From assembly GCF_003057965.1 (NCBI RefSeq), contig NZ_CP020921.1, positions 1,662,916 through 1,726,915 of the forward strand: a DNA stretch of 64,000 nucleotides, read 5' to 3'. Each line of letters starts with the position of its first letter. The stretch's first letter is position 1. The translations under genes were made by a program, and so were the position numbers. This document shows positions 1-26,674 of this stretch, piece by piece. The notes under the pieces are model-generated. The model saw nothing but the letters and a program-made list of their open reading frames with translations, made no database searches and was not told where the DNA came from. This DNA is from Thermodesulfobium acidiphilum. GTDB lineage: Bacteria > Thermodesulfobiota > Thermodesulfobiia > Thermodesulfobiales > Thermodesulfobiaceae.

Positions 1-117
1 GAATATACAAATTCAAGAACATTTAACATAGTAGCATGGCTCACAACTATTGTATTAATAGTCCTAACTTTACTCATGATAATCACCTCTATCTTTCCAG
101 GCTTACTACCATCATAA
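1..117 (+). CDS. 3' end of probable Nramp-family divalent metal transporter (partial)
   Basis: Frame 1 reads EYTNSRTFNIVAWLTTIVLIVLTLLMIITSIFPGLLPS*, resembling the last TM helix of Nramp/MntH-like proteins. Confidence 0.6.
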   Translation, partial: EYTNSRTFNIVAWLTTIVLIVLTLLMIITSIFPGLLPS

Positions 118-121
118 ATTT

Positions 122-157
122 ATTGCCCAGAGTACAAGTGAGAGTTCTCTGGGCAAT
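122..157. terminator. Inverted repeat / likely bidirectional terminator
   Basis: ATTGCCCAGAG...CTCTGGGCAAT stem between convergent genes. Confidence 0.7.
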
Positions 158-168
158 TTACACTTTTT

Positions 169-1113
169 TTAAATTTTAATTGGGTCTAAACTTCTTATTA
201 ACTCAAGATCCCTTTCTATATCCTCGCCTGGTCTGGTAAGATAACCACCTATCATTAAAGCATTAGCAGCTGAGTTTAGCGCTAATTTCTGATATTTTCC
301 AAGAACGCTCTCTCTACCTGCACATAGTCTAATAGTAGCGTAAGGGAGAATAATTCTAAATATTGCAAGAGTTTTTAAGACTTCTGATTTATCGAGAACT
401 CTAACATTTTCAAGGGGAGTCCCTTTTATAGGAATCAATATATTGAAGGGAACTGATCTTATCCCAAGATCTTTAAGGATAATGGCAAATTCTACTCTTT
501 GTTCAAAAGTCTCACCTAAGCCTACTATGCCTCCAACACAAGGAATCAAACCCACCCTCTTTACAGCTTCAATAGTCTCAATCCTTTCATCATAAGAGTG
601 AGTGCTGCAGATATTGCCAAAAAAACTCCTTGAACTCTCAAGGTTATGATGATATGTAGAAACTCCTACATCCTTCAATCTAATTAGATCTCTTTCTCTA
701 ATTATTCCTAAAGACGCACACAGTTCAATATCTACCTCTTTTTTAAGCCTTTCAAAGATAGACAACAACTCATCCATATCAGCTTTGGACGGGCCTCTAC
801 CACTTGAAACAAGAGAAAACCTCTTTGAACCATAATTTTTCATCAATTTTGCCTTGAAAATTACTTCCTCAACACTAACTTTTTTAAATTCTATACCTGT
901 ATTAAAATGAGAAGATTGAGCACAAAAGGAACAATTTTCAGTACATCTACCAGTTTTATAACTTATTATTGAACACAATTCAAAAGATGAAGAATATTTA
1001 TCCTTTATTCTTTTTGCAATCATGAGTAAACGATCTGTATCAAGATTTAAGAGACCATATACAGCAGATTCGTTTAATCTATTTTCTGGGTTAAAACTTT
1101 CTAAATCGATCAT
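169..1113 (-). CDS. bioB: Biotin synthase (radical SAM)
   Basis: CTENCSFCAQS motif, YHHNLES, IRLCAGRE, ANALMIGGYLT; GGAGG RBS precedes ATG at 1113. Confidence 0.95.
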   Translation of the reverse strand: MIDLESFNPENRLNESAVYGLLNLDTDRLLMIAKRIKDKYSSSFELCSIISYKTGRCTENCSFCAQSSHFNTGIEFKKVSVEEVIFKAKLMKNYGSKRFSLVSSGRGPSKADMDELLSIFERLKKEVDIELCASLGIIRERDLIRLKDVGVSTYHHNLESSRSFFGNICSTHSYDERIETIEAVKRVGLIPCVGGIVGLGETFEQRVEFAIILKDLGIRSVPFNILIPIKGTPLENVRVLDKSEVLKTLAIFRIILPYATIRLCAGRESVLGKYQKLALNSAANALMIGGYLTRPGEDIERDLELIRSLDPIKI

Positions 1114-1230
1114 CAAAAACCTCCAAAACATTCTTAAATAATCTCATAAATTTTATCAATAAATTTCAAGTAAGCAAAGTTTTTATGTTAGAATTAGATT
1201 AATTATTATTTAAAAAGGAGCAAAATAATT

Positions 1231-2121
1231 TTGGAAAGTTCTGAAAGCATAAAAAAAATTTACAATTTTAAAGAAACAGATAGAGATAATCTTAAGTCTC
1301 TATGTGCTGCAGCAAAGCAAAACGCTGATAATTTTATAGAGAACCTATATAACTTTCTTATTACTTTTCCAGATTATTATAAATTTTTGGGTAAGCTGGA
1401 AGTTAGAAAAAGACATGAAGAAAAGTTTAAAGTTTGGTTTACAGATCTATTCTGTGGGGAATATGACGAAAGCTACATTATAAGAATCCAAAAAATCGGA
1501 CAAGTTCACGCCGATATGGGGTTACCTACCCATTACGTCAGCGCTACAATAAGCTTTATAAGAAACTATATTCACAAAAGAATACTTCTCTCCTGTCCGA
1601 ACGAGGAAGAGAGGAGAAGTTGTAGAGAATCTGTTGACAAGATATTAGACATAAATCTTGATATCTTAACCAGTTCCTATGTAGACGAAAATAAGATTTA
1701 TATTGCTCAAACAAATATAGAAAGCAAGATAGTAAGAATAAGTTCAAAGATATCCTATTACTTTGACATTGCCCTTGTATTAGCTCTTGTATTTACAAGC
1801 TTTATGATATTTGTCTTGTTTTTATCAGATATTTATAACTTTTTAAGAAGCACTTCATCTTTTGAAAGCAGCGTAATAAACATACTTGGTGCTATGCTTA
1901 TAATCTGGACTATCAGAGAACTTTTAGAAGAAGAGTTAAAAAGATTAAAGGGCAAAAAGTTTGCACTAAACATATTTATAAGCCTTGCTATGGCAGCCAT
2001 GCTTAGGAAAATATTGATATTTTCACTTGAACCTCATAACTCTACAGAAGTAATAGTACTCGGATTTCTTGTATTGATACTTGGCATAGTATATTGGCTT
2101 ATGAATAAGAGCGCTATTTAG
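1231..2121 (+). CDS. Protoglobin/globin-sensor domain fused to PsiE-like 4-TM membrane domain
   Basis: N-half globin-like (WFTDLFCGEYD, KIGQVHADMGL with proximal His); C-half four hydrophobic helices with MLIIWTIRELL and AMLRKILI. Confidence 0.8.
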   Translation: MESSESIKKIYNFKETDRDNLKSLCAAAKQNADNFIENLYNFLITFPDYYKFLGKLEVRKRHEEKFKVWFTDLFCGEYDESYIIRIQKIGQVHADMGLPTHYVSATISFIRNYIHKRILLSCPNEEERRSCRESVDKILDINLDILTSSYVDENKIYIAQTNIESKIVRISSKISYYFDIALVLALVFTSFMIFVLFLSDIYNFLRSTSSFESSVINILGAMLIIWTIRELLEEELKRLKGKKFALNIFISLAMAAMLRKILIFSLEPHNSTEVIVLGFLVLILGIVYWLMNKSAI

Positions 2122-2305
2122 TTTTAGTTATTTCTGATTCACAAATCATTTTATCTATTTCGCATGCTTTCTGGAATTTTTTCAGATATTTACTTGCTGA
2201 ATAAAAATCTATAAAAATTAATGAAAACCAACATTTATTTAAAAAAATAACAATATTCACATATTGTGATAAAATAATATATAAACTAGTCAGGAGGCAA
2301 TTAAA

Positions 2306-3055
2306 TTGAAAGAGATTACGTATAAGATTCATCCAATAGTCTTGGGAAGCAAAAGCTTTGACAAGAGTATGATGACATATCAGTTTAACTATGGCAAACC
2401 ATTTGTAATACCTATTTATAGCTGGTATTTAGAAGGGAGTAACAAAAACATCCTTATTGATACTGGTGAATTTATGCCCTTAAAGTCAAAAGACAGAGTT
2501 GATGCCCTGGGAGCAAAAATATATTCTTTTGAAGAAGGGCTTTCGAAGTATAATCTTACTCCAGAAGACATAGACATAGTAATTCATACTCATCTACATA
2601 ACGACCACTGTGAAAACGATTCAAAGTGTAAAAACGCAATATTCTACGTACACGAAAATGAGCTAAAGCAGATTCACAATCCTCATCCTTTAGATTATAG
2701 ATATGTAGAAGACTTTATCTTAGATATAGAGGAAAATAAACAGATTGTTTCTCTGAAAGACGATACCGATATCATGCCTGGCATAAAAATGATCTACACC
2801 CCTGCACATTCACCCGGCGGCATGTCTGTATTAATAAATACCGAAAAGGGTAAAGCCCTAATAACAGGCTTTTGCGTAATAGACGAAAACTTTAATCCAC
2901 CACCACAAGTATTAGGAATGGGAATGGAAGTAATCCCACCAGGAACTTTGATTAATTCATATGAAGCATACGATATTTTATTAAAAGTTAAAGAGATGGC
3001 TGACATTATAATTCCACTGCATGAACCAAGATTTGCAAAAGTAGAAACCATTTAG
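2306..3055 (+). CDS. MBL-fold metallohydrolase, N-acyl homoserine lactonase family
   Basis: LIDTG, HTHLHNDH (HxHxDH), TPAHSPG, PLHEP; AGGAGG RBS before TTG. Confidence 0.85.
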   Translation: MKEITYKIHPIVLGSKSFDKSMMTYQFNYGKPFVIPIYSWYLEGSNKNILIDTGEFMPLKSKDRVDALGAKIYSFEEGLSKYNLTPEDIDIVIHTHLHNDHCENDSKCKNAIFYVHENELKQIHNPHPLDYRYVEDFILDIEENKQIVSLKDDTDIMPGIKMIYTPAHSPGGMSVLINTEKGKALITGFCVIDENFNPPPQVLGMGMEVIPPGTLINSYEAYDILLKVKEMADIIIPLHEPRFAKVETI

Positions 3056-3172
3056 ACATATCTATAAGAATATTTTTAAACAGGCAATTAATCTTCATAT
3101 TATACTTCTAATAAAATTTAAAATAACTTTTTCTTTCAACTTATCTCTGAGAGACGGTATTTTTTAACTTTC

Positions 3173-3847
3173 TTATATTAAGAGCATATAATTATATCTT
3201 TTGAGCCAGTTTTCATGCTTTTTATAATCTGGCATTAGCATCCTTACTTTTATCCAGAAATTCTTACCGTGATTTTTTTCTTTAAGGTGTGCAAGCTCAT
3301 GAACAACAACATAGTCTATCACAGAAATCGGAGCCATTATAAGTCTATATGAAAAGTTTAAGTTTCCATTTGAAGAACAAGAACCCCATCTTTTTTGCGC
3401 ATTTGTGATATTAATTTTACTATATTTTAAATTGCTTTTTTGCGCATACCATTTGACTCTTTCAGAAATTATATTAAATGCCTCTTTTTTATACCAATCA
3501 ATAAAAACTCCCCTTGCTTTATCTAAAAAACTCCTCGACAAATAAAAATTATCTTCAAGTTTAAGAGGAATATCTTGGTTATCCACTATATAAAGCTTAT
3601 AATACTTGCCAAGATATAGAAACCCTTCCCCATTAACAAATTCCTTTTTTAAAACTTTAAGATCCCTTGCCTCTATCTCCTTTTTTTTATTCTCAATCCA
3701 ATTTGAATGCTTCTGAATAACTTCCCAAATTCTCTTTTCGTCTATACCAAAAGGTGCTTTGACTATTAACGTAGCATTATCTGTAATCTGGAGTGCTATT
3801 GTCTTTCTTTTTGAACGAATTATCTTCTCAAGCTTTATGTCTTCCAT
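3173..3847 (-). CDS. YgjP/DUF45 family (M48/SprT-like) zinc metallopeptidase-like protein
   Basis: RSKRKTI, RWGSCS, DYVVVHELAH (HExxH), NHGKNFW; likely start MEDIKLE. Confidence 0.9.
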   Translation of the reverse strand: MEDIKLEKIIRSKRKTIALQITDNATLIVKAPFGIDEKRIWEVIQKHSNWIENKKKEIEARDLKVLKKEFVNGEGFLYLGKYYKLYIVDNQDIPLKLEDNFYLSRSFLDKARGVFIDWYKKEAFNIISERVKWYAQKSNLKYSKINITNAQKRWGSCSSNGNLNFSYRLIMAPISVIDYVVVHELAHLKEKNHGKNFWIKVRMLMPDYKKHENWLKRYNYMLLI

Positions 3848-3895
3848 AATATCACTTCCTATAATTATGATAAGCAAATTCTGATAATATTTGTG

Positions 3896-4015
3896 CTATT
3901 TCGTTTCTTTTGTTATATATAACTTGCCAAACATTTTCACGATAGTAAGGAATTCTATAAAGTATGGGATCAAAACCAAAGATAACATAACTTCTATATA
4001 CGTCGACAAACTCAT
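3896..4015 (-). CDS. Putative 39-aa hydrophobic small protein (not in ORF track)
   Basis: AGGGG RBS then MSLSTYIEVMLSLVLIPYFIEFLTIVKMFGKLYITKETK*. Confidence 0.3.
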   Translation of the reverse strand: MSLSTYIEVMLSLVLIPYFIEFLTIVKMFGKLYITKETK

Positions 4016-4097
4016 CTTATCAGCCCCTAATATTTTTATATATTCTACTATTAAATTGAACACCAATTAAATTTTACTAAGAATTCTAAACTTAGAT

Positions 4098-4307
4098 TAA
4101 TCCCTCAGCTTATTAATAGAATGCACTTATCCTTCTGTCAAAATTTAGTATTTTATATTAAATTTCTTATTAAATATTTGGGATTAAATAACCCTTTATA
4201 TCTTTAAAGTCTTCCCTGTAGGCATCTTTAGAAATTTTCTTAATCAGTTCAGATTCAATTAAAAATTTCTTAGCAAACTTTTCATTAAAATCTTGATCCA
4301 CAGGCAT
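4098..4307 (-). pseudogene. Degenerate gene remnant, possibly N-terminus of type I restriction subunit HsdR
   Basis: GAGAGG RBS, MPVDQDFNEKFAKKFLIE...REDFKDIKGYLIPNI* (stop at 4170), then stops/frameshift and LTEG*VHSINKLRD; lies upstream of a YgjP gene. Confidence 0.35.
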
Positions 4308-4419
4308 TTTATAATTTACCTCTCAAGACAAAAAATAATAAATGACAATGCATTATATACGAAGTACAGCACAAAACTTAATTTCTATAATATTAAACAT
4401 ATACATGCTATTCGCAACG

Positions 4420-5514
4420 TTAAAATGCACTACCAAATTTCTTTTTAGCAATAATAATTTTTGAACCTAGTGTATCTCCAAATTTAGAAAGATATGAATA
4501 AAATCCAAATTCATCTTCTTCTACAATTCTTTCAATCGAAAAATATTTCTCAAGCAAATCCAGATAGTCTTCGTAGCTAAAATCTTCAGCAAAACTATAA
4601 ATCTTACTACCTTTTTGTACTCCTTCAAAAGCTGAAAGATTCCACTCTACATCCAGAAGATAATCCCTCGAACCTTCTCCTCTATGATAAAAAGCATGTT
4701 TTGTAATAAAAAGCCCCCCTTCTTTCAAACTTGAATTTATCTTCGGAACAAGATTTGGATTTTTTCCGCCTGGATTATAAGAAAAAAATACAATATCATA
4801 GCCATTACCAATATCATCTTTAAAAAGATTACCTGAAATAACATTTATCCTCTTTGCCTTAAACTTTTTAATATAATCCTCTGTATCCTTGATAACATCA
4901 GGAAAATCAAAGATATATGCTTCCAAATCTTTATTCAATCTTGTAAAAGCAATAGAACAAAGCCCGTGCCCTCCTCCCAGATCAAGAAGTTTTTTTGCTT
5001 TTCTGAATTCAGGAAATTTTTCAATGATTCTAACTGTTTTTTGAAGCTCCCCGCATAAAATCTCTGACGCAAGCGAATGTATAAGGTTGTCTTGAAAACA
5101 ATTTTCCTCAAGTATCTTTATAGGACCATTTTCCAAAACATTGGTCAGTCTCCTCCATAACTCAAAACCATTTTTTATGTTTTTTAATACTTCTTTTTGA
5201 TAGAAAAAAGAGTTGCTTTTTAGATAATAGCTGCTTAATTGAGTATTTTTAAAGGATTCATCTTCTTTTTTTATAAAACCGAGATTAGCCAGAATTTCAC
5301 ACATATTTTTCAAAATCACATAATTTATTCCTATCTCACTTGATAGTTCATCAGCACTTTTTAGACTATCTAAATGATCAAATAAACTTATTTCAAGAGC
5401 TGCATCAAGAATACAAAGTTCCTTAAATTTCCTTGAGCAATCACTCAAAAAGTTACGTAACGCTTCAGCACTTATTGAGGGTTCATTAAAAAAAATACCA
5501 TTATCTTTTAACAT
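4420..5514 (-). CDS. SAM-dependent O-methyltransferase family protein with N-terminal dimerisation/wHTH domain
   Basis: LDAALEISLFDHL, LLDLGGGHG motif I, IFDFP, GNLFKDDIGNGYDIV; AGGAGG RBS. Confidence 0.85.
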   Translation of the reverse strand: MLKDNGIFFNEPSISAEALRNFLSDCSRKFKELCILDAALEISLFDHLDSLKSADELSSEIGINYVILKNMCEILANLGFIKKEDESFKNTQLSSYYLKSNSFFYQKEVLKNIKNGFELWRRLTNVLENGPIKILEENCFQDNLIHSLASEILCGELQKTVRIIEKFPEFRKAKKLLDLGGGHGLCSIAFTRLNKDLEAYIFDFPDVIKDTEDYIKKFKAKRINVISGNLFKDDIGNGYDIVFFSYNPGGKNPNLVPKINSSLKEGGLFITKHAFYHRGEGSRDYLLDVEWNLSAFEGVQKGSKIYSFAEDFSYEDYLDLLEKYFSIERIVEEDEFGFYSYLSKFGDTLGSKIIIAKKKFGSAF

Positions 5515-5562
5515 TTAAACCTCCTATTAATTTTAATTGTCGGATGTTATTTATTTAAAGGA

Positions 5563-5598
5563 GTCGCAATCCCTTATTCTTCAGGGAATTCTTCTAAC
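5563..5598 (-). CRISPR. Solitary 36-nt CRISPR repeat (type III-like); no array
   Basis: Minus strand GTTAGAAGAATTCCCTGAAGAATAAGGGATTGCGAC: GTT start, TCCCT/AGGGA stem, 8-nt 3' handle-like ATTGCGAC; adjacent to cas6 and a CARF gene. Confidence 0.85.
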
Positions 5599-6379
5599 TT
5601 TTAAAAATCTTCTCAAACGGTTTTGCGAGATAATTTGCCTCTTTTATTAGATCATCCTCTTTTTCTAAATTTTTTAGCAAGTCATCCGTATACTTATTAA
5701 TATTTATATCCTGAGCCAGGTTTAAAGAAGACGAAATAGACTCAAAATTGCCCGCTATTGTTTGCAAAATTTTTGGCTTTATAGAACTATTGTTTCTATA
5801 TGCCCCTGCGTGAATTTTTCTTACAAAATCTCTTGCATCCTTTGAAAATATTCCAGTTTTAACAAAAAATCCTGAAAAGTTTATCCAGCTTAAGATATCC
5901 AGAACTTCTCCAAGGTTAATTATGGGACTTTTTTCTTTGTCTTTGTCATATAAGCCATAATACAGACCACCCAGGTCGATGCCCCTTATATTTCTCAAAA
6001 ACTCAATTGTCAAAAAAACATAAAATGGTATAAGTCTGTAAGAGTGTGTGATGTCAAAAGAAATTTGATTCATAGATTCTGTACAATCGATAACCTTGTC
6101 CCAGATTTCCCACCTTTCATTTTCTGTAAGCCCTTCTGGAATATCTCTATCCTCTACCTTCACGCATAAATCGTTTGCTTCTTTTTTAAACTGTTCAAAA
6201 TGTTTATTTCTTGACTCTTTTGTAACAAGCAATATAATTTTCTCTATATTAGCAAGATTAGCTATAGCTATAGGGGCATACTTTGTAGAAAATACCTTTT
6301 CATCATCGCCATTCATAAAATACTTTGTAACCTTATAGTCCCCTACACCCAAAAAACTTATTAAAACGTTCCCCACCAT
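5594..6379 (-). pseudogene. CRISPR-associated CARF protein Csx1/Csm6-like (TM1812/TIGR02221 type), 3'-truncated
   Basis: LISFLGVGDY, IPEG, FDITHSYRLIP (DxTHG-like), LYYG; only 261 aa, no RxxxxH HEPN motif; stop codon lies within the CRISPR repeat. Confidence 0.8.
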
Positions 6380-6414
6380 TTATGCACTCCTTAAAAATAG
6401 TATTAAATTAAAAT

Positions 6415-7350
6415 TTACAAAATAGTTAAAAGGTATCTCCCAAATCCAAAACTTGTGTTTCTTCCTATAGAAATCTCTTTTGCGCTGTCAATTAGAGAAA
6501 TCAAACTGTTAGGCACATTAGAAAAAGTTATATCACCAACCAATCCCATATGGTTAATTAGTCTCTGTTGCCTACCAGAAAATCTTTTCAAATTTTCTAA
6601 ATATGTATTATTTTCTAAAATTTTTACCTCAAGTGATTCGTTTATGCATTTCTTTATAAAACTTGATTCAAAAGATGGATATCCATAGAAGAACTCAAGC
6701 AATGAAACTCTTCTCAACAAATTTCTTATCAATATATGAAATTGAAGAAGAGAAACTGTTTTTCCTTCAAATCTAAGAGACAAAGGAGACAAGAAATCAA
6801 TTTTTAAATTTTTAAAACCATTGTTTTCTGACGAATATATCCTATCAAGGCTTAACAATGATGGGTTTTTAGCAAATGAATTAATTGTTTTATGTTCCTG
6901 GTCGAATAACTCACCATTTACATCCCTTACACTAACCACTTCGAATCTTGCCCTATCTTTACCAAGGCCAATTTCTCCTAACTTGATAAACGTATAAACA
7001 AAAAATGGTAAATTTTCAATACTGTCACCCATCAAAACTAACTCAAAATCAAAAAGATCCTCTTTATCAAAAGATGTTTCATAATTTTGAGAAAATATAA
7101 TAAAGGGATGGGGGATATATGGATATTTAGTCATTTTCATTGCGCCCTGAGGCCTTGGGCTATCAAATATTTTTCTATAAATACAACTCTCATTTAATAT
7201 GCATTCGCTACAATCCAACGCCTTTTGAACGCAGGCAATACTTTTGAAAATACTCCCAAATCCCCCTCTTAGCGTTATGCTTTTGTATTTCGGCAGTGAT
7301 GTAAAATCACGAAGCTTAAGCGTTATTTTAAATTTTTTAAATTTTAACAT
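6415..7350 (-). CDS. cas6: CRISPR pre-crRNA processing endoribonuclease Cas6 (RAMP)
   Basis: TLRGGFG, Cys cluster CxxxxxxCxxCxxxxxC, PHPF, GLGKDR, C-terminal G-rich loop IGRNTSFGFGRY. Confidence 0.92.
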   Translation of the reverse strand: MLKFKKFKITLKLRDFTSLPKYKSITLRGGFGSIFKSIACVQKALDCSECILNESCIYRKIFDSPRPQGAMKMTKYPYIPHPFIIFSQNYETSFDKEDLFDFELVLMGDSIENLPFFVYTFIKLGEIGLGKDRARFEVVSVRDVNGELFDQEHKTINSFAKNPSLLSLDRIYSSENNGFKNLKIDFLSPLSLRFEGKTVSLLQFHILIRNLLRRVSLLEFFYGYPSFESSFIKKCINESLEVKILENNTYLENLKRFSGRQQRLINHMGLVGDITFSNVPNSLISLIDSAKEISIGRNTSFGFGRYLLTIL

Positions 7351-7397
7351 ATGACATAGCTACCCCCTCATTAAGAAAAAAAATCTTAAATAAGTTA

Positions 7398-7425
7398 ATT
7401 TTATCAGTCTATATTCAATTGTCAA
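7398..7425 (-). promoter_or_regulatory. Sigma70-type promoter for cas6 operon
   Basis: TTGACA-N16-TAAAAT with TG extended -10 on minus strand. Confidence 0.65.
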
Positions 7426-7502
7426 GGTTCACTTTATATGCTAATTTAATATTAGATTGTATTAAAAAATTTAAAAGGAAAGATGTTGTATGAGATAAAA
7501 TT

Positions 7503-8771
7503 ATGCCCAAAGAAGATAAACAAAAATTGTTGAAGTTCTTAAAATTGATAAGTTTAGAAATGGGTATTAATTCGAAAGATAACCTTATAAGGGTTTTTGG
7601 CTCATTAGGAAGCCTTGAAAGCACGCTTAGAAAAATCAGAAAAATCAGATTAGAATCGGCAATGTCTCCTTTGATTAGCTTAAAGTCAAAAAAATATCTA
7701 TATGATTCAGATTCAGTCCTTGATGAATATTTAGTAATTATACTGTCAGGCCAGATAAAAGGAACAGAGGCAATAAGGTATGCAAAGATAATAGAATTAT
7801 TAAAAAGAGACAAACTATCCATTGGTGAGATAACCGATAAGTTAAACGATTCCTTGTGTCAAGGCAAAAGCTCTCTTTTAGAGTTAAGAACAATAAGAAA
7901 TTATCTTAAGATTTTAGTCAGCGATGGATTTGTCGAAAAAGTAAAAGACAAAAAATATATAAAATATAAACTAAAAAAGGGCTTGGAACTATTGCCAGAA
8001 CACTTATTGGTAAAACTTTATCTTTTTACTGATTTTTTTTCTAATACAGGGCTTTTGGTAACCAGAAGCTTGATATTAAAATATTTTTTAGAGAAGAGAC
8101 TTGGAACAAATAAGCTAAAAAGAATTAAAAATGTTATTTGCTACAAGCATTCAAAGCCGCTAAGGGTGTTCGACGATTTAAATGTTCTGTATATCTTAAA
8201 TTTATTAGAATGCAAAAAAGCCTGTTCGCTTGAATTAAGTTTATTGCCAAAATCCAAAAATAAGCCTTTAGAGAAGATAACAGTTATACCTCAATTTTTA
8301 CTATTTGATTATCAACTTGCAAGATGGTATTTGATTACTGATGGCGATACTAAAAGAGTATTGATTGACAGAATTTATGAGTTCAGAAAAGTTATAAGGG
8401 GATCGGATATTTTAGATAGCCATCTTGAAAAGAGATTAGATAATCTCAAGAAATCTTGGTTAGTTGAAGAAGATGCGAAAGAAAAAGAGATAATAATAAA
8501 ATTCTATTTCGACAGCAGCAAAAGTTCAAAAAATTTTATACTAAACAGAGTCAAAAAAGAAGCAATGGATGGTCAAATAGAGATTATCGATAAAAATAGT
8601 TTTATTCTTAAGATATTGACAAGAGAATTAAACGAGATAAAACCATGGATAAGGAGTTTTGGCTCAAGCGCTCAGGTATTAGAACCACGTTCTCTAAGAA
8701 ACAGTTTAATTGAGGAGTTCATTAGCCTAAAGTCTACTTACGAGTCAGTTATAAGTGAAGGCTCACTATGA
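7503..8771 (+). CDS. WYL-domain protein (wHTH-WYL-WCX)
   Basis: wHTH-like LRTIRNYLKILVSDG, WYL core ARWYLI/IDRI, WCX-like EIKPWIRSFGSSAQVLEP. Confidence 0.9.
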   Translation: MPKEDKQKLLKFLKLISLEMGINSKDNLIRVFGSLGSLESTLRKIRKIRLESAMSPLISLKSKKYLYDSDSVLDEYLVIILSGQIKGTEAIRYAKIIELLKRDKLSIGEITDKLNDSLCQGKSSLLELRTIRNYLKILVSDGFVEKVKDKKYIKYKLKKGLELLPEHLLVKLYLFTDFFSNTGLLVTRSLILKYFLEKRLGTNKLKRIKNVICYKHSKPLRVFDDLNVLYILNLLECKKACSLELSLLPKSKNKPLEKITVIPQFLLFDYQLARWYLITDGDTKRVLIDRIYEFRKVIRGSDILDSHLEKRLDNLKKSWLVEEDAKEKEIIIKFYFDSSKSSKNFILNRVKKEAMDGQIEIIDKNSFILKILTRELNEIKPWIRSFGSSAQVLEPRSLRNSLIEEFISLKSTYESVISEGSL

Positions 8772-9559
8772 TATCTAAGATATATAACCTTGAAATATTA
8801 AATAAGATAAAAGAGTTTACAAATGATGATTTTTGTAATTTAAGCAATGAAGAATTGAGATGGTTAAAATATTTAATTAACACTGATGAGTCAGGCTTTT
8901 TCTTTAATGCAGAAGACAGAAAAGAATTAAAAACTTATTTAGCTGACATAAACACATCGAGTCTACCAAAAATAATAATAAAAAATAAACCAAAGAGAAA
9001 TAGAAAGTCCTGGAGTCTTTTAGAGCCATTGTTCACAGCTATTTTTGAAGAAAAAGACTTAATTCTAAGATTTCAAATTTCTGATTCTGAACAATTTAAG
9101 GCAAAATGCTTCCCTTACAAAATAGAATTTGAATTTTACAAGGATGAATGGTACCTCTTGTGGCTAAATTTGAGCGAAGACAAGAAAAAGATGAAAACTC
9201 CATTTGCGTCTATACTTTCATTTGAAATAATAGATAGAGAAAATGAATTATTCGAAGAAGCAGAAAAAATTTTTCTTGAAGAGTATCATTTTGCCAAATT
9301 TAGGGTTGACAAACAATATCTTGACGATCTAAAAAGAATCCTATTAACGCTTATTGATTTTAAACCAATTCTTGAAAAAGACATCCAAAATAGTCTTATT
9401 TTCAAAATAAAATACAAGCCCTCAGAAGAGGGCTATCTGCTCCAAAAATTCAGACAACTTGGCAAGAGGGCGATAATACTTGAGCCAAGATTCTTAGTCG
9501 AAAAAATGCTATTTACTTACACAAAAAGCTTAGAAAGATATTCAAAGAGCCAATCATAG
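8768..9559 (+). CDS. Second WYL-domain protein, translationally coupled
   Basis: PYKIEF..KDEWYLLW, RQLGKRAIILEP; ATGA overlap with upstream gene. Confidence 0.85.
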   Translation: MISKIYNLEILNKIKEFTNDDFCNLSNEELRWLKYLINTDESGFFFNAEDRKELKTYLADINTSSLPKIIIKNKPKRNRKSWSLLEPLFTAIFEEKDLILRFQISDSEQFKAKCFPYKIEFEFYKDEWYLLWLNLSEDKKKMKTPFASILSFEIIDRENELFEEAEKIFLEEYHFAKFRVDKQYLDDLKRILLTLIDFKPILEKDIQNSLIFKIKYKPSEEGYLLQKFRQLGKRAIILEPRFLVEKMLFTYTKSLERYSKSQS

Positions 9560-9575
9560 CTCTTGCAATAAAGAT

Positions 9576-9998
9576 CTATTTATTTCCCATAAATTGGTCT
9601 TTTGACCACTTTCCTTGATAAACTACATTTCCATTTTTGTCATAATATGTGCCATATCCATCTCTATAAAAATCTACAAAGTCGCCTACATACTTTGTGC
9701 CTTCAAACCAGGTGTATGTGCCCTTGCCCGACATCTTTCCCTCAACCATAGTGCCTTCATACTTGTCGCCTGGTTGTCCGTCCTGGTACCAGATCATTAC
9801 TCCTTGGCCGCTTGCATAGCCATTTGAATCAATTCCCCCAGTCCAGACGGGAACTTGATTTTGCTCAGGATAGGCATCCCAGACCTTTCCGTTGTTAGTC
9901 TGCACATAGACACCATTAGCAAAAGACAAAGCGCTGAAAATAAATAAAATACTGAAAACAATAGAAAACAAAATAGAAAATCTAACTAATTTACCCAC
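9576..9998 (-). CDS. Secreted MORN-repeat protein
   Basis: Signal peptide; repeats YEGTMVEGKMSGKGTYTW, YVGDFVDFYRDGYGTYY, YQGKW; AGGAGG RBS before GTG. Confidence 0.85.
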   Translation of the reverse strand: MGKLVRFSILFSIVFSILFIFSALSFANGVYVQTNNGKVWDAYPEQNQVPVWTGGIDSNGYASGQGVMIWYQDGQPGDKYEGTMVEGKMSGKGTYTWFEGTKYVGDFVDFYRDGYGTYYDKNGNVVYQGKWSKDQFMGNK

Positions 9999-10074
9999 TT
10001 TACCCTCCTCCTAAGATGATTAAACTTATTAAGTTTGATCAATATGTTAGCATAAAAAAAGATATTGTTATAAT

Positions 10075-10107
10075 AAAAAAACCCTCCTTCAGGTGACAGG
10101 AGGGTTT
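10075..10107 (-). terminator. Rho-independent terminator of traT
   Basis: AAACCCTCCT...AGGAGGGTTT stem followed by T-run on minus strand. Confidence 0.8.
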
Positions 10108-10125
10108 GAAAGATTTTTCTTAGTG

Positions 10126-10863
10126 TTATGGGAGCAAATTAGCTATTGCGTGAGCTAACTGCTGTCTTAATACTGGCTCTACATCGTCAAATTTTATATT
10201 TGTACCAGATGCTTCAGATACTACTCTATCTCTGTATATCGCCCAATCTTTAATACTAGAATTGCTTGAGGTCTCTGTAGTAGCAGTTCCCTGAGCTGCG
10301 TTGGTAGTAGTCTCTGTCTGTGTGCCTGGCTGCCTTTGTTCAAGTTGCACGTCTACCACCATCATATACTTATCAGAGTTAATAGAATTCCCGATAGCAG
10401 CTCCAGCAAGTGCTCCAATCACTCCACCCGCAATAGTTCCAGTATATTTCCCACTTGGATTAAAAGCTGAGCCTATAAGAGCTCCACCAAATCCCCCTGC
10501 AAGAGCCCCTTCAGCAGTGTAATCTTTCGTTTCTTTACCAATATAAAGAACATTTGACATCAGCATAAAATTGGCATCATCAGGATTATCAGTGATCTTA
10601 TATCCCTCATTAGTTAATTCAGTAACTAACTCCTTCCTAAAGTCCAAACCAGTTGCAGTAGACGTATTCCTTACGCTCACATATACTATCCTTTTATCTG
10701 GTGAAACTGGTTGCAAAAAGATACTTGAGCTCATCTTGGTGCTAAGAGAAATTTTACCTGCTGTAAGGCCACTAGAATCTGCCTTTGCTATACCAGCAAA
10801 GCAAAATGAAATAAGTAAAAATAAAACCAGCAAACTACTAAACTTTCCAATATTAAATTTCAT
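10126..10863 (-). CDS. traT: TraT-family complement-resistance/surface-exclusion protein
   Basis: TKMSSSIFLQPV..KRIVYVSVRNTS, GYKITDNPDDANFML, glycine-zipper GALAGGFGGALIG, YMMVVDVQL. Confidence 0.85.
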   Translation of the reverse strand: MKFNIGKFSSLLVLFLLISFCFAGIAKADSSGLTAGKISLSTKMSSSIFLQPVSPDKRIVYVSVRNTSTATGLDFRKELVTELTNEGYKITDNPDDANFMLMSNVLYIGKETKDYTAEGALAGGFGGALIGSAFNPSGKYTGTIAGGVIGALAGAAIGNSINSDKYMMVVDVQLEQRQPGTQTETTTNAAQGTATTETSSNSSIKDWAIYRDRVVSEASGTNIKFDDVEPVLRQQLAHAIANLLP

Positions 10864-10910
10864 TTAATTCCTCCAAATTTCCGACATAAAGACTCTCTCA
10901 CCTAAAGATA

Positions 10911-10938
10911 ATTATACAGTCTCAATGACATGTGTCAA
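10911..10938 (-). promoter_or_regulatory. Consensus sigma70 promoter of traT with overlapping palindrome
   Basis: TTGACA-N16-TATAAT; TGACA-NN-TGTCA overlaps -35. Confidence 0.75.
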
Positions 10939-11221
10939 TAAAATACATTTTAATAACTATGCTTATATGAAATGTTTATAAACCAGATATCTCAAGAGTT
11001 TCGTAACAACTCTCTAAAGTTTGCTCTAATATAAGCAAGCTCTATATTTAAATATATATTCTATTTCTAAGGCAAAAAAGCCTGAACAAATATTTGACAG
11101 CTCTTTTAAAAATAAAACCCTATATCAGTAATATCTTTAACTTAACATTACAAAATTTGATTTAGTTTATAATAATAACTAAAAGCAGTTAATTCAATTA
11201 CTTTTGATCCAGGAGAAAAAA

Positions 11222-11941
11222 GTGGAAAAACCTTGTTTAGAAAAAGACTTTATAAGCGATAGTTACTCAGAATTAACGCCTAGTTTAGAAAATTATCTTC
11301 GAACCATATATGACATAAACCAGTCAAAAGGCATTGCCAGAGTAAGAGACCTTGCAAAGCAGCTTAGAGTAAAAACGCCTTCTGCAGTAGCAGCAATTGA
11401 ATCCTTAAAGAACAAGGGTCTGGTAACTCAAGAAAGATATGGACATATAGAGCTTACAAATAAAGGAAGAATTCTCGCACAAAATCTTTCAAGAAGAAAA
11501 AATACAATAGTTAACTTTTTAGTCCGAATCCTAAGAATTGAGAAAAATCTGGCTGAACAGGATGCCTGTCTCTTAGAACATGATTTTAGCCAAAGCACAT
11601 TTAGAAAAATGGAAAAGATGATAGCTTTCATAGAAATGTTGGAAGAAAAGCACCCAGAAATTTTTAAAGAATTTAAGAAATTTATATTTGATAGCGACGA
11701 AAAATATGAAGCAAATGAACCAAAAAGTTTAGTTGAACTTAAAGACGATGAAGAAGCAATCATAGTTCATATTAATCTCGATCAGATTAGCAAAGAAAAG
11801 CTTGCTATACTTGGTCTAAAAAAAGGCTCAAAAATAAAAAGAATTCAATCCTACAAAGATATAATTAACTTTCAGATTGAAGATAGTTTTATAGCATTAT
11901 CTCTAAATGAGTGTAAACACATTTATTGCAAGACAGTATAA
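11222..11941 (+). CDS. DtxR/MntR family metal-dependent repressor with C-terminal FeoA-like domain
   Basis: LTPSLENYLRTIY, ARVRDLAK, LTNKGR, DACLLEH; AGGAG RBS favours GTG at 11222. Confidence 0.92.
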   Translation: MEKPCLEKDFISDSYSELTPSLENYLRTIYDINQSKGIARVRDLAKQLRVKTPSAVAAIESLKNKGLVTQERYGHIELTNKGRILAQNLSRRKNTIVNFLVRILRIEKNLAEQDACLLEHDFSQSTFRKMEKMIAFIEMLEEKHPEIFKEFKKFIFDSDEKYEANEPKSLVELKDDEEAIIVHINLDQISKEKLAILGLKKGSKIKRIQSYKDIINFQIEDSFIALSLNECKHIYCKTV

Positions 11942-11947
11942 AAAAAT

Positions 11948-11977
11948 AGCCGCAAGTTTTTCACAATCCTTGCGGCT
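11948..11977. terminator. Likely bidirectional terminator
   Basis: AGCCGCAAG...CTTGCGGCT between convergent dtxR-like gene and nuoN. Confidence 0.75.
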
Positions 11978-11995
11978 TGATTTTAGGTTTAATAT

Positions 11996-13372
11996 TTAAT
12001 GAATAAATATTGAGGGCAAAGTCCCCAATACTATTACCAATATCGAAAGACTAAGAACAAGCCCTTTGGTAAAGTCACTTGAAACAACTTCTGTTTCTAC
12101 ATCCGGTTCTTTCATGTACATATTCATTACAATCCTAAGATAGTAAAACGCACTTGTTATAGTCATCAAAACAGCAACAATTACCAGTGATGTAAAGCCA
12201 GCGTTCACAGCTGCCAAAAAAAGCTGAAATTTTGCAATAAAGCCTACTGTTGGTGGAATTCCTGCAAGGGAGAACATAAATATCATCATTATTCCAGCAA
12301 GATACGGATATCTTTTTGCAAGTCCATTGTAAGTAGACATGTCATCACCATTCTTCAACATAAATACTACACCAAATGCTCCAAGATTCATAATTGCATA
12401 CGCAATCAAGTATGTAAGAATTGCGCTTAGCCCCTCTTGAGTCCCAACAATTATCCCAAGAAGCATATAGCCTACGTGTGATACAGACGAAAATGCTAGC
12501 ATTCTCTTTACATTCTCCTGTGAAAGTGCTAAGAGATTACCGCCTACCATTGTAAGTATGGACAAAACAATAAGCACTGTTTTCGGCTCAACCCAGATTG
12601 GTACCAAACTTCCAATAAAAAATCTACCAAAAGCCAACAATAAAGCAGTCTTCGGAGCTGTAGCAAGAAATGCAGTTATTGGAGTTGGTGCCCCTTGATA
12701 GGTATCCGGAGTCCAAGCATGAAAGGGTATTACAGAAGACTTGAAACTAAAGGTTATAATCACTGCTATAACACCTACTATAAACATAGGATCCGTTAAA
12801 ACTTTGGCATAGGATAAAGACTTTGCTATATTGTAAAAATCTGTAGTACCCGTAGCGCCATAAATGAGCGCTATTCCATATAGCAAAATAGCAGTTGCAA
12901 CCGTTCCCATTAGATAATATTTAAGCCCTGCCTCACTTGAAAGTTTGTCCTTCCTATAAAAAGAACATAGTATATAAAGAGACAAAGACAAGGTCTCAAG
13001 GCCTAAATACAATATTATCAAGTCTCTTGAGCCTATCATAAAAAGCATCCCTACCACAGAAGTTAGTATAAGCGTTAAAAACTCTCCGTAACTGGTAGTG
13101 GGTATTGCAACGTCATCTATTGAAATCAGTATTACATAAATAGCTATCAAAATAATGATCCAGCTACCCAAAACGTCAATTGAATCTACTGAAAAAGATG
13201 AATTAAATATCGAAGCGCGCAAAGAGTACTTCCAGACCCCAGTTATTAAGAGCCCTAATATTGCAAGAATTGAAAAGGTTCTTCTATTTTTTATAAAAAG
13301 GGCTGAAAGAAAAATAAATATTGAACACGCAATCAAAAACAGTTCAGGAGCAATAACTTTAAACATCATCAT
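11996..13372 (-). CDS. nuoN: NADH-quinone oxidoreductase subunit N
   Basis: SSEAGLKYY, FKSSVIPFHAWTPDTYQGAP, KRMLAFSS, SLAGIPP. Confidence 0.93.
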   Translation of the reverse strand: MMMFKVIAPELFLIACSIFIFLSALFIKNRRTFSILAILGLLITGVWKYSLRASIFNSSFSVDSIDVLGSWIIILIAIYVILISIDDVAIPTTSYGEFLTLILTSVVGMLFMIGSRDLIILYLGLETLSLSLYILCSFYRKDKLSSEAGLKYYLMGTVATAILLYGIALIYGATGTTDFYNIAKSLSYAKVLTDPMFIVGVIAVIITFSFKSSVIPFHAWTPDTYQGAPTPITAFLATAPKTALLLAFGRFFIGSLVPIWVEPKTVLIVLSILTMVGGNLLALSQENVKRMLAFSSVSHVGYMLLGIIVGTQEGLSAILTYLIAYAIMNLGAFGVVFMLKNGDDMSTYNGLAKRYPYLAGIMMIFMFSLAGIPPTVGFIAKFQLFLAAVNAGFTSLVIVAVLMTITSAFYYLRIVMNMYMKEPDVETEVVSSDFTKGLVLSLSILVIVLGTLPSIFIH

Positions 13373-14877
13373 CTTAACCACCCCACTAAGGGTAAAGTAG
13401 TGTGAGCTATCATAGAAGAACTAAATTTTGTAGCTATCAAATGCGATACAGAAGATTGCATATAAGAGGTAAATACACCTGGCTGAAAACCTATATATAG
13501 TACCAGCAAAAGCAGTGGAACCAATGTCAATATTTCTCTTGGTCCAAGATCATATATCAAATCCTTAATTTTTTCGTTCAAGTTACCATATGCAACCCTA
13601 TAGTAAAGCCATATCATATAAGTTGTTCCAAGAATTATCCCCAAAACTGCAAAAGCTCCTAGCGGTATAAATCTAAGAAATGCGCCACAAAGAATCAAAA
13701 ACTCCCCCATAAACGAGTTAGTTCCAGGGAGCCCAATTGCAGCAAGAGTAAAAAATGTATAAAACAAAATAAATATAGGCAAGGTAGGCTTTAAGCCACC
13801 ATAGTCAGCGATCTGTCTTGTATGGGTTCTTTCATAAATCATACCAACCAGGCAAAACAAAGCACCCGTTACAATTCCGTGATTTATCATCTGCAAAATC
13901 CCGCCAAGCATCCCTATTTGAGTAAGTGTAAATAAGCCAAGAGTTACAAATCCCATATGAGAAACAGAGGAATATGCAATAAGCCTTTTAAGATCTGTCT
14001 GTTTTAGCGTTACAAATGCACCGTATACGATAGCTACTACTGATAAAACCTGAAGCAAACTCAAAAACATCATAGTAGCCTCAGGAAAAAATGGCATAGA
14101 AAATCTTAGGAATCCATATGCTCCAAGTTTAAGCAATACGCCAGCAAGTATTACGCTTCCTGCTGTGGGGGCTTCAGTATGAGCATCCGGTAGCCATGTG
14201 TGAAGAGGAAACATAGGAACCTTCACAGCAAAAGCAAGAGTAAAGGCAATAAACAAAAATATTTGCATGTTTAATGGCAGATTGAGCTTCATTAATTCAA
14301 GGATGTCAAACGTATGCCCACCTGTAAAATATAATACCAAGATGGATACAAGCATCAACACAGAGCCAGCAAAAGTAAATAAAACAAATTTAATTGATGC
14401 ATAAACTCTGTTCGGGCCACCCCAAACTCCAATTAGTAAAAACATCGGGATAAGCATAGCCTCCCAAAAAGCATAGAAAAGTAAAAGATCCAGAGATACG
14501 AAAACCCCAATCATTGAAGTTTCCATAAGAAGAATCATTATAAAAAACTCTTTTACCTTTTTGTCTATTGCTTTCCAGGAAACACTTACGCTTATTACAG
14601 TAATAAGAGTCGACAACAAAACAAACAAAACTGATATCCCATCTACACCTACAGCATACTTTGCGTTTATAAATGGTATCCAGGGATAAACCTCTACAAA
14701 TTGCATAGCGTGAGAATTCTTATCAAACAAAAACCAAAGGGGAAGAGAGATGAAAAAGTCTATCAACGCTACCAGCATTGCAGTTGATTTTATGAGCGTT
14801 GGATTTTTCATAAACAATATAAGAATGGCACCAATAACAGGTATTAAAAGAATAAGAGACAATATAGGAAAGTTCAT
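13369..14877 (-). CDS. nuoM: NADH-quinone oxidoreductase subunit M
   Basis: GVDGIS, FWEAMLIPM, VKVPMFPLHTWLPDAH, KRLIAYSSVSHMG. Confidence 0.95.
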   Translation of the reverse strand: MNFPILSLILLIPVIGAILILFMKNPTLIKSTAMLVALIDFFISLPLWFLFDKNSHAMQFVEVYPWIPFINAKYAVGVDGISVLFVLLSTLITVISVSVSWKAIDKKVKEFFIMILLMETSMIGVFVSLDLLLFYAFWEAMLIPMFLLIGVWGGPNRVYASIKFVLFTFAGSVLMLVSILVLYFTGGHTFDILELMKLNLPLNMQIFLFIAFTLAFAVKVPMFPLHTWLPDAHTEAPTAGSVILAGVLLKLGAYGFLRFSMPFFPEATMMFLSLLQVLSVVAIVYGAFVTLKQTDLKRLIAYSSVSHMGFVTLGLFTLTQIGMLGGILQMINHGIVTGALFCLVGMIYERTHTRQIADYGGLKPTLPIFILFYTFFTLAAIGLPGTNSFMGEFLILCGAFLRFIPLGAFAVLGIILGTTYMIWLYYRVAYGNLNEKIKDLIYDLGPREILTLVPLLLLVLYIGFQPGVFTSYMQSSVSHLIATKFSSSMIAHTTLPLVGWLR

Positions 14878-24377: not shown

Positions 24378-26462
24378 TTATTTCACCTTCTTAACAGAAA
24401 CTGTACATTCCGTAAATGGGCAGTTTCCGCCAATTGCAACCTTTACAAGTCCCTTTTGAAGTCTTACATCAGACACTCCCTTGCCAAAAGACCTGGTTCT
24501 TAAGGGTACATCATCACCAAAGCCATGAAGCATAAAGAGTACATCAGGATGTATATATTTCGTAAGTTTTGCTTTTATATATTGCTTTTCTCCTTCATTT
24601 TCTACCTCAAGAAGATCCCCTTCTTTTATTCCAAGTTCTACTGCTCTATCTTCATGTATATATAGATGATTTTCACTCACATACTCGTTTAATAGCCTAT
24701 TGTTTAAAGTAGTTCTGCCCTGAGTGTGCAAAGCGCACTTACTGGTAACTAATCTAAACCTCCCTGGTTTCAGTTCTATTGGTTTCTCATATGGGATAAA
24801 GGAGGGAATACCTACATCTTCTAATTTTTTAGAAATGAATTCTATTTTGCCAGAAGGGGTTTTAAACTTCAAACCATCAACCCTATCCCACATTATAGGC
24901 TTATCTACCAGTTCAATGTAGCCTTTTTCATTAAAATCTTCTAATTTGTATCCAGTCCCCTCCAATTGCCAGGCAATTAGCTCTTCTATGCTATTGTAAG
25001 GAAAATATTGACCCACTCCAAGTCTGTTTGCAAGTTCTTTGAATATCCACCACCTTGGTCTGGTATCAAACCTTCTTTGAACTGCTGCCTGTCTTAGAAT
25101 GTAACCTGGCTTTGGACCATTTCTAGCTATAACATGATCCGTTCTCTCAAGATATGTATCTTCCGGCAAAATCACATCAGAGAACCAACCTGTCTCGCTG
25201 TAATTTATATCAATAGATACTAATAAATCCAATTTACTAAAAGCGTCTCTAATATAATCTGGATCTGGTAAAGAAGCAAGCGGATCGTGTCTGAATACAA
25301 TATATGCCCTTACAGGATAAGGCTCATCGGTAAGAAGCACGTGAGCTAACTCCTGAGCTAATCCCCATTGCTCGCTAAGATGGGGATATTTTGTCCCACA
25401 ACCGTCAAATCTTGGATCCTTTGGCTTTGGGACCTGAGCTAAAAGCGACTTTAGGGGCTTGCCTACAGCTTCAGGACCTTTATTAATAATTAAACCTCCC
25501 TTTGCCTCATATGCACCCAGAAGTGCATTAAGAGAACAAATAGCTCGTCTTAAATAAAAATCATTTGAGTACCACGCAGTCATCCAACCAAGGTGAAATA
25601 TTACAGATGGCTTGGCATTTCCTACATCGTGAGCTAATTTTACAATTTCGGCTGCAGGGATACCAGTCTCATTTTCAGCAAACTCAGGAGTATAGAGCTT
25701 TACAAAGTTCGAGAGTTCCTCAAAACCTACGGTCCACCTCTTAACAAAGTCAGCATCATAAAGAGAATCCTTTATAATCACGTGTATTAAGGCTAGAGCT
25801 AAAGCATAATCAGTTCCTGGGTTTATCAAAAAAAACCTATCAGCTTTTGCTGCAGTATAGTTCCACCTAACGTCAATTTGAACAAGTTTCCCACCATTTT
25901 CAATCATATCTATAACGCTTTTTGCCTCCCCCGTAACAAGAGATTCAAGCAAGTTCCTGCCAAAACTAACTAGATACTTACAATTTTTATAATCATATGT
26001 AATACCATTTCTTGCAAGACCCGCTACAGAAAGATGAGCATTGTGAATAGAATTAGAGCATGTTGCATGATGATTAAAGTAATTTGGAGATCCGATTGCA
26101 GCAAGAAAAGTTTTTTCAAATTCGGTAATTGCTCCTCCTCTATCAGACAATACAACGCTCTTCGCCCCATATTTATCAATTATATTTTTCAAATTGTCTG
26201 CTACATAGTCTAAGGCTTCGTCCCAAGAAACACTTCTCCATTTACCAGACCCTCTTTCTCCGTCACGTATTAAAGGAGTCTGAGGCCTTTCTGTATCATT
26301 TAATAGAGCTTTGCCTGCAGCTCCTCTTGGACATAAATGATACCCCCCTAAAAGATAGGGATTCCCCCAGATGTGTTCAACTTCATTTCCATTGACATCA
26401 ACCACAATAGGGCATCTTCCCGTACACATTGCACAAATACTATAAACCCTCTTGGTACCCAT
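24378..26462 (-). CDS. Molybdopterin oxidoreductase catalytic subunit (PsrA/PhsA-like), no Tat signal
   Basis: CAMCTGRC..CPRG FS0 cluster, SWDEAL, HHATC, PGTD, SDVILP, HTQGRT; GGAGG RBS before ATG 26462. Confidence 0.9.
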   Translation of the reverse strand: MGTKRVYSICAMCTGRCPIVVDVNGNEVEHIWGNPYLLGGYHLCPRGAAGKALLNDTERPQTPLIRDGERGSGKWRSVSWDEALDYVADNLKNIIDKYGAKSVVLSDRGGAITEFEKTFLAAIGSPNYFNHHATCSNSIHNAHLSVAGLARNGITYDYKNCKYLVSFGRNLLESLVTGEAKSVIDMIENGGKLVQIDVRWNYTAAKADRFFLINPGTDYALALALIHVIIKDSLYDADFVKRWTVGFEELSNFVKLYTPEFAENETGIPAAEIVKLAHDVGNAKPSVIFHLGWMTAWYSNDFYLRRAICSLNALLGAYEAKGGLIINKGPEAVGKPLKSLLAQVPKPKDPRFDGCGTKYPHLSEQWGLAQELAHVLLTDEPYPVRAYIVFRHDPLASLPDPDYIRDAFSKLDLLVSIDINYSETGWFSDVILPEDTYLERTDHVIARNGPKPGYILRQAAVQRRFDTRPRWWIFKELANRLGVGQYFPYNSIEELIAWQLEGTGYKLEDFNEKGYIELVDKPIMWDRVDGLKFKTPSGKIEFISKKLEDVGIPSFIPYEKPIELKPGRFRLVTSKCALHTQGRTTLNNRLLNEYVSENHLYIHEDRAVELGIKEGDLLEVENEGEKQYIKAKLTKYIHPDVLFMLHGFGDDVPLRTRSFGKGVSDVRLQKGLVKVAIGGNCPFTECTVSVKKVK

Positions 26463-26674
26463 AGTCTCCTCCAAAATAATTTAAGATATTATAAAACAAT
26501 TTATTTAAAATTGACAGAAAATTTAGACAATGTTTTTTCTTAAGCTATTATATATAATAAGTTACAATTATTAATTAATATATATTAATATTTAAGTGTA
26601 ACAAAAAATTACTAAAAAGTTTATAAGAATTATTTATTATCAAATTTAAAATAGTGATACGATAAGGAGTTATT

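Follow-up and report, generated by a model that had tools for sequence, protein, structure and literature searches.

The window analysed here is a 64,000-nt stretch of the present genome (G000), in whose coordinates all positions are given; it was compared with the genomes of three other species of the genus (G001-G003). The features that lie at the locus are collected in Table 1. On the minus strand, a short Csx1-type reading frame ends AAG ATT TTT AAA AGT TAG and is followed by the remainder of a 36-nt repeat (5598-5563) ending in ATTGCGAC. The final sense codon of this frame, AGT, occupies 5599-5597, such that its last two bases are also the first two bases of the repeat, and the stop codon TAG (5596-5594) is formed by repeat bases 3-5. 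The reading given in the initial annotation, in which the repeat begins inside the last codon and donates the stop codon, was thus reproduced.

Table 1. Features at and beside the solitary repeat, in window coordinates
Feature	Position	Strand	Details
O-methyltransferase gene	4420..5514	-	PF00891 and PF08100; start lies 49 nt downstream of the repeat
Solitary CRISPR repeat, 36 nt, complete	5563..5598	-	Identical to the G003 array repeat; adjoins the trailer flank
Truncated TM1812/Csx1-type CARF gene, 261 codons	5594..6379	-	TIGR02221 match; 260 native codons, a fusion codon (Ser) and a repeat-supplied TAG
Deletion joint	5598..5599		Identity to G003 csx1 stops and the repeat starts; sole common base is the G at 5598
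cas6, intact, 311 codons	6415..7350	-	PF10040, 48.8 bits
Promoter-like site upstream of cas6	7398..7425	-	11/12 consensus matches, with TG; pattern match only
Divergent regulator with WCX (WYL-associated) domain and weak HTH match	7503..8771	+	PF25583, 36.2 bits
263-aa ORF, function unassigned	8768..9559	+	Within the 97.8%-identical block; faint WYL match, E 0.089

At up to 3 mismatches, a single copy of the 36-mer is present in the window, where 0 copies were expected from 100 shuffles, and likewise a single copy in the whole G000 genome, which consists of one contig of 1,774,794 bases. The statement that no second repeat is present, made originally for the window, thus holds on both scales. 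A script that required 18-mers to be repeated at least 3 times with a spacing of 45-110 nt found no CRISPR array in this genome. In the relatives, the same sequence was observed as a regularly spaced repeat, with 50 copies in G003 (0 mismatches), 94 copies in G001 (1-2 mismatches) and 51 copies in G002 (3 mismatches). Spacers of the arrays of the genus measure 32-48 nt, giving a repeat-spacer unit of ∼77 nt. At least one exact copy was also present in each of 25 metagenome contigs, 23 of which are arrays, and a leader was conserved before the first repeat in all six contigs having at least 80 nt of upstream flank. At the RNA level, the repeat forms a hairpin of 5 bp (-7.4 kcal/mol, z -2.6). 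The lone 36-mer is a true CRISPR repeat of the type III-A array of the genus, as its array copies in the three relatives and the metagenome contigs attest, and in G000 it is not part of an array, with one repeat and no spacer left. In G001 (L049, trailer) and in three metagenome contigs (L055, L068 and L072), the terminal repeat of the array is degenerate. Perfect copies are seen as the last repeat of G003 and as the lone repeat of G000.

The frame that ends on the repeat matched TIGR02221 (cas_TM1812) with 102.5 bits, against a cut-off of 76.25, and the match reached position 208 of the 218 in the profile. For TIGR02549 (DxTHG), a score of 18.6 bits was obtained, under the cut-off of 21, and residues 109-113 read D-I-T-H-S. 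Homologous frames in the three other genomes of the genus are full length at 484, 484 and 487 aa, and over residues 1-260 the stump and the 484-aa G003 protein show 100% identity. The C-terminal 224 residues, which bear the HEPN part, are absent from G000, and the R-x4-H motif R-N-L-I-A-H lies in the half of the G003 protein that G000 lacks. The full-length G003 protein itself matched a HEPN family (PF18735) only weakly, with a sub-threshold E of 0.0024. A C-terminal HEPN domain with R-x4-6-H, the mark of CARF-HEPN effectors of the Csx1/Csm6 kind, was not found in the stump, in keeping with the original remark that Csx1-type proteins are normally longer and carry an RxxxxH motif missing here. 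The family might have ended naturally at KIFKS; when this was checked, the native proteins were found to run on past that point and, given their 484-487 aa and the R-x4-H motif seen in the G003 protein, the homologues do not terminate there. On sequence grounds, the ORF at 5594-6379 is classed as a truncated gene whose nuclease part has been lost. In the G003 gene (L038:4004-5455, 484 aa), the C-terminal tail that follows R-N-L-I-A-H gave a faint Csx3-like match (PF09620, E 0.0015), also sub-cut-off. A search of PDB sequences with the full-length protein returned no significant match, the faint ones being to Csx3 chains only (E 0.6-0.8). The G003 csx1 product may be a CARF-HEPN-ring-nuclease fusion, with all of these matches below curated cut-offs.

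The cas6 gene beside the stump and the regulator next to it had been overlooked when no cas10, csm/cmr or cas1/2 genes were first noted in the window. In the whole genome, too, Cas10, RAMP proteins and Cas1 were not found. Cas6 of G000 and G003 differs at 6 of 311 residues, and a WYL/WCX-type regulator is kept beside cas6 in all relatives. The cas6-regulator block (window 5598-9725 versus G003:C1:42673-46802) is 97.8% identical in the two genomes, with 0 differences in the 943 nt from 5598 to 6540, and the flanking chromosome is ∼79-84% identical. These identities suggest that the CRISPR-Cas locus was recently transferred, or underwent gene conversion, between two species of the genus. On its right, the high-identity block is bounded by a MORN-repeat ORF at 9576-9998 (140 aa; 209 aa in G003), which has several paralogues elsewhere in the G000 genome. 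A TraT-like lipoprotein gene at 10126-10863 (PF05818, 198.9 bits) is chromosomal. A tRNA integration site was considered and rejected, there being no tRNA gene in window positions 1-14000.

The order of the G003 locus on the transcribed strand is cas6, csx1, a Csm6-type gene (TIGR02710, on the opposite strand), cas10/csm1 (matched with 527 bits), csm2, csm3, csm4, csm5, a CRISPR-associated primase-polymerase gene (PrimPol), cas1, cas2, an 82-aa ORF, cas4, the leader and 50 repeats. Gene content and order in G001 are the same as in G003, and G002 has the same genes through cas1, where the stretch analysed starts. All three relatives therefore possess cas6, csx1, csm6, cas10, csm2-5, PrimPol and cas1, and in G001 and G003 cas2, cas4, the leader and the array are also present in one stretch. 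The PrimPol of G003 (L037:14809-16668; NF040561, 281.9 bits) is fused to TPR repeats, and the Cas4-like protein of its adaptation module (L037:12473-13159) is a PD-(D/E)XK nuclease. When all ORFs of the G003 locus were compared with the G000 genome by tblastn, only cas6, csx1 residues 1-267, and the regulator with its neighbours were recovered. Family searches of the whole G000 genome gave 0 matches for Cas1 and 0 for RAMP proteins, only sub-threshold helicase matches for the Cas3 core and, with the Cas10 model, only a 22.8-bit match to its first 155 positions in an unrelated 397-aa frame. Cas10/Csm1 and Csm2-5 were found in G000 neither by family searches nor by tblastn with the G003 proteins. 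Given that Cas10, the Csm proteins, Cas1 and spacers are missing from the genome, the remnant gives no immunity; it is dead and, taken alone, ordinary. The initial annotation had proposed deletion of a whole type III locus and had suggested a check of sister strains for the csx1-cas10-csm/cmr-array-methyltransferase arrangement. Such a locus was present in 3/3 relatives, which carry csx1, cas10, csm2-5 and arrays, and the comparison upholds the deletion. In detail, cas6 and the regulator persist beside the stump.

In the alignment, G000 and G003 agree up to ...TTTTTAAAAG, after which G000 continues as the repeat (TTAGAAG...) and G003 continues as csx1 (GATCAAAG...). Native csx1 also has a G at the position of the first repeat base, so the breakpoint is fixed only to within 1 nt and lies at the leader-side repeat edge or one base inside. 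The claim of a truncation precisely at the repeat thus holds to within one nucleotide. Identity to G003 csx1 extends to that edge, confirming that coding DNA sits at the spacer position; csx1 DNA takes up the precise place at which a spacer or the leader would terminate. A few bases past the joint, csx1 and the repeat share an 8-nt match that the deletion did not use. With a unit of ∼77 nt, the chance of a random array-side endpoint at this edge is ∼2/77. Given that window 5598-9725 aligns to G003 42673-46802 and that the G003 array occupies 26365-30166, 16,272 bp are missing relative to G003. The ancestral order was cas6, csx1 (CARF plus HEPN, 484 aa), csm6, cas10, csm2-5, PrimPol, cas1, cas2, cas4, leader and array, then the methyltransferase gene. 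This arrangement has lost ∼16 kb, beginning at csx1 codon 261 and reaching the leader-side border of a repeat. Left behind are the regulator, cas6, one repeat and a CARF-only stump for which the TAG of the repeat serves, by chance, as the stop codon. Very probably, a type III-A CRISPR-Cas locus was destroyed here by a recent deletion, and the remnant is its scar and not a working element.

On the trailer side, the flank that follows the last repeat of the array is different in all four genomes and, for this reason, the flanks cannot tell which repeat survived. In G000 this side (window 3064-5562) includes a YgjP-like gene at 3173-3877, whose nearest DNA match in G001 lies far away, around 446 kb. 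No match to the O-methyltransferase gene was found in the congeners by DNA search. The trailer side of the G003 array (G003:C1:20900-26267) holds a Fic gene, a SocA/Panacea antitoxin-like gene and an IS21-type IstA/IstB pair. An insertion-sequence cause was considered with this IS21-type pair in mind, which adjoins the G003 array, but it was rejected, as no insertion-sequence DNA is present at the G000 joint.

Two public runs, X1 and X2, contain DNA nearly identical to that of G000, and their contigs were compared with the window; the joint itself is known from the G000 assembly alone. Among the runs listed for this DNA, none was an RNA run. Over 1,701 bases, the X1/X2 contigs differ from G000 by 3 substitutions and 2 single-base indels (∼99.7% identity). 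The contig covering 5598-6500 continues for 1,079 letters past 5598 within csx1 and is unbranched at the site of the joint; the first 30 of these letters are the G003 csx1 continuation, as judged by eye. An X1 contig covering 4800-5598, that is, the methyltransferase flank and the repeat, continues for 539 letters that are unlike the window, and X2 includes a 101-letter contig with two repeats separated by a spacer. The sibling strain has a full-length csx1, plus an array beside the same methyltransferase flank. Given that the undeleted form is found in runs with ∼99.7% identity, the loss is a recent, strain-level event. Furthermore, because the methyltransferase flank and repeat of X1 run on into array sequence, the flank is native and the surviving repeat is in terminal position. 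Among the X1/X2 contigs listed, none spans 5598/5599 in the G000 form, but contigs can drop rare variants, so the lack of a bridging contig does not prove the joint absent from these runs. Further copies of the joint were sought by a protein-seeded scan of metagenome contigs, in which no relative was found, and by a scan of genome contigs, which gave only the G002 record. The 25 metagenome contigs with the exact repeat represent other lineages, their flanks showing 78-82% identity to the window, and csx1 or the methyltransferase flank was found in 0/25. Inside the methyltransferase ORF, the X1/X2 contigs lack one base at 4990 and carry an additional A after 5487. In G000 this ORF is uninterrupted and Pfam matches lie to either side, and the two differences represent either a frameshifted sibling copy or homopolymer-length differences.

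Two rival explanations were considered. The strain might have an intact locus, ∼16 kb of which was skipped by the single-contig assembly. It is true that the joint has no independent record, that X1 and X2 both show csx1 and the array continuing, and that assemblies are often broken by CRISPR arrays. However, collapse of repeats cannot delete ∼12 kb of unique cas genes, nor can it interrupt csx1 midway, at a point where the contigs of both runs are unbranched. The five differences in 1.7 kb mean, moreover, that X1 and X2 are not simply the reads of G000 itself, and the genome is a single contig of 99.99% completeness in which the missing genes occur nowhere. An assembly artefact is accordingly considered highly improbable. 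The probability is smaller still, and close to negligible, that the standalone repeat or a domesticated CARF-only protein is functional, for example as a Cas6-cut site that shapes a cas6-stump-methyltransferase transcript or as a cyclic-oligoadenylate sponge. Such a role would suit the intact cas6 with its strong promoter-like site and the perfect, co-oriented repeat placed 49 nt before the methyltransferase start, and regulatory standalone repeats do exist in type I and type V-A loci, as reported in the accessible part of Shmakov et al. (bioRxiv 10.1101/2023.03.03.530964). Against it, neither an effector complex nor Cas10 remains by which a crRNA could be used or a signal made, 3/3 relatives have no repeat at this place and a full-length csx1, and the arrangement is a strain-level novelty. 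The same source judges type III mini-arrays to be degraded repeats. Neither the conserved position nor the cognate effector that accompanies regulatory standalone repeats and mini-arrays was found in G000.

For the deletion itself, three routes to the joint were weighed. In spacer acquisition, the first strand transfer by Cas1-Cas2 links the leader-side repeat edge to a DNA 3' end. If the leader-repeat border were broken, or a chromosomal 3' end mis-joined there, and the upstream side resected into csx1, the joint and the orientation seen would result, and repeat-repeat recombination would then shrink the leaderless array to one repeat. The Cas1-Cas2 joining put forward in the initial annotation would fit this geometry. 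The base-exact joint may thus reflect the chemistry of the adaptation integrase, an explanation that draws on general background about the enzyme and that we hold at somewhat less than an even chance. Given that the integrase is expected to act at the leader-proximal repeat and that one repeat is left, either array collapse must have followed as a second event or the integrase acted at the terminal repeat. The integrase route gains weight from the repeat-edge deletions in print for Salmonella, in the part of that report available (PMC3356390). In the literature covered, on spacer-protospacer deletions, off-target integration, single-repeat remnants and cas3 remnants, no mechanism was found for repeat-edge cas deletions. 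Alternatively, ordinary illegitimate recombination, such as a topoisomerase-mediated event or slippage on minimal homology, may have ended at the first base of the repeat by coincidence. A single G is common to both sides of the joint, a chance of ∼2/77 is not negligible when very many windows are scanned, and no spacer or PAM sign of the CRISPR machinery was seen. On the other hand, 1 nt of homology is a poor basis for slippage, the more so with the 8-nt match close by unused; a family search gave 0 Ku matches in the G000 genome, making classical end joining unlikely; and the same fixed-edge geometry recurs in the available part of the Salmonella report (PMC3356390). Overall, coincidence is regarded as rather unlikely. 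Homologous recombination between a self-acquired, sense-oriented csx1 spacer and csx1, removing all that lay between, would predict csx1 sequence up to the repeat edge without foreign bases, as seen. Spacers of 32-48 nt are on offer here, and E. coli spacers match own-system cas genes in genomes lacking those genes, as described in the available part of Touchon and Rocha (PMC2886076). Yet among 961 spacers (790 distinct; from G001-G003 and the 25 metagenome contigs), none matched the cas loci of G001-G003 or window 5599-9800 beyond 22 nt, which is no more than chance, so the self-derived csx1 spacer put forward in the initial annotation is without direct support. Consistent with this, the 193 spacers of G001-G003 gave nothing past 23-nt partial matches in the whole G000 genome and nothing at csx1, and all spacers searched against G000 at E ≤ 1e-4 gave 2 matches, neither of at least 24 nt, from which no PAM was derived. 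In the sibling, the csx1 contig is unbroken through the site, no such spacer is evident and the terminal spacer is not csx1. Three events would also be needed, namely acquisition, recombination on ∼40 bp and array collapse, and spacer recombination is judged quite improbable. If the deletion is taken as real, an integrase-linked event comes out, approximately, as the first choice at less than even probability, coincidence as a tenable second and spacer recombination as a poor third. From a single case, an integrase-linked event and a 2-in-77 coincidence cannot be told apart, and this case was selected for its exact edge.

CRISPR-Cas systems are often lost and regained, but their loss is rarely traced to the base. 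Here, the combination of a base-exact scar, a sibling strain that keeps the locus and a sister species with a DNA-identical stump makes the event closely reconstructable. A broader and more doubtful suggestion is that the leader-side repeat edge is a built-in breakpoint for the self-deletion of unrelated CRISPR-Cas types, at which Cas1-Cas2 (here with Cas4 and PrimPol) nicks the DNA or mis-joins a chromosomal 3' end, fusing the stump of an upstream cas gene to the repeat with loss of the leader, adaptation and effector genes. If so, the present scar would be the first such case outside enterobacterial type I-E loci, and integrase-driven self-excision would be a general route of CRISPR loss. 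If the match to Salmonella is not due to chance, the site of spacer integration would be a general weak point at which the adaptation enzyme destroys its own locus. The scar is thus of more interest as one data point for possible integrase-linked CRISPR loss than it is alone.

Comparison with known systems begins with the intact type III-A locus of G003 (G003:C1:26365-46802). The two genomes share the same repeat with 0 mismatches and have 97.8-100% DNA identity over cas6, the regulator and csx1 codons 1-260. Unlike G000, G003 keeps csx1 codons 261-484, csm6, cas10, csm2-5, PrimPol, cas1, cas2, cas4, the leader and 50 repeats. The nearest likeness among published scars lies in Salmonella enterica, for which Fabre et al. 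2012 (PMC3356390) describe type I-E "deletions of the Cas machinery." Among the classes visible in Table 3 of that paper, deltaA1-A10 have one common start coordinate, and the ends of deltaA1-A9 are all different and lie within cas3. As far as that source extends, the Salmonella deletions and the present scar have in common one deletion end that coincides with the outer edge of a complete direct repeat, a second end that falls at a variable point inside the cas gene farthest from the array and leaves a 5' stump co-oriented with the array, and the loss of the leader, adaptation and effector genes. The outer-edge endpoint, the co-oriented 5' stump and the lost leader and adaptation genes that characterize this type of repeat-edge deletion were all found here, and by this analysis the scar can be assigned to a known, Salmonella-like kind. 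By contrast, the Salmonella locus is of type I-E, with a cas3 stump and the rest of the array kept, whereas the locus here is of type III-A with a CARF/csx1 stump, cas6 survives upstream, a single repeat is left and no spacers are retained.

Lone repeats of another kind are described, in the accessible part of Shmakov et al. (bioRxiv 10.1101/2023.03.03.530964), for Francisella genomes negative for type V-A, in which single repeat units are left after CRISPR-cas loss. There, as here, a lone repeat marks the site of a lost CRISPR-Cas locus. The Francisella repeat adjoins a degenerate terminal repeat and is intergenic and conserved; the present repeat, unlike it, is a perfect copy joined base-exact to a cas stump and lacks conservation in relatives. 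In E. coli, arrays without cas genes hold spacers that match cas genes of their own system, according to the available part of Touchon and Rocha 2010 (PMC2886076), and the likeness to G000 lies in cas-derived sequence at the spacer position together with the absence of the cognate cas genes. The E. coli sequences, however, are true spacers between two repeats, whereas the csx1 sequence here runs uninterrupted into the remaining gene, and the search for a spacer of this kind found none. Thus, lone repeats as locus remnants (bioRxiv 10.1101/2023.03.03.530964) and repeat-edge deletions with a cas stump (PMC3356390) are, in the accessible parts of these sources, already in print. What is new here is the setting, namely a type III-A locus in a hot-spring lineage, a CARF-gene stump and an undeleted sibling on record.
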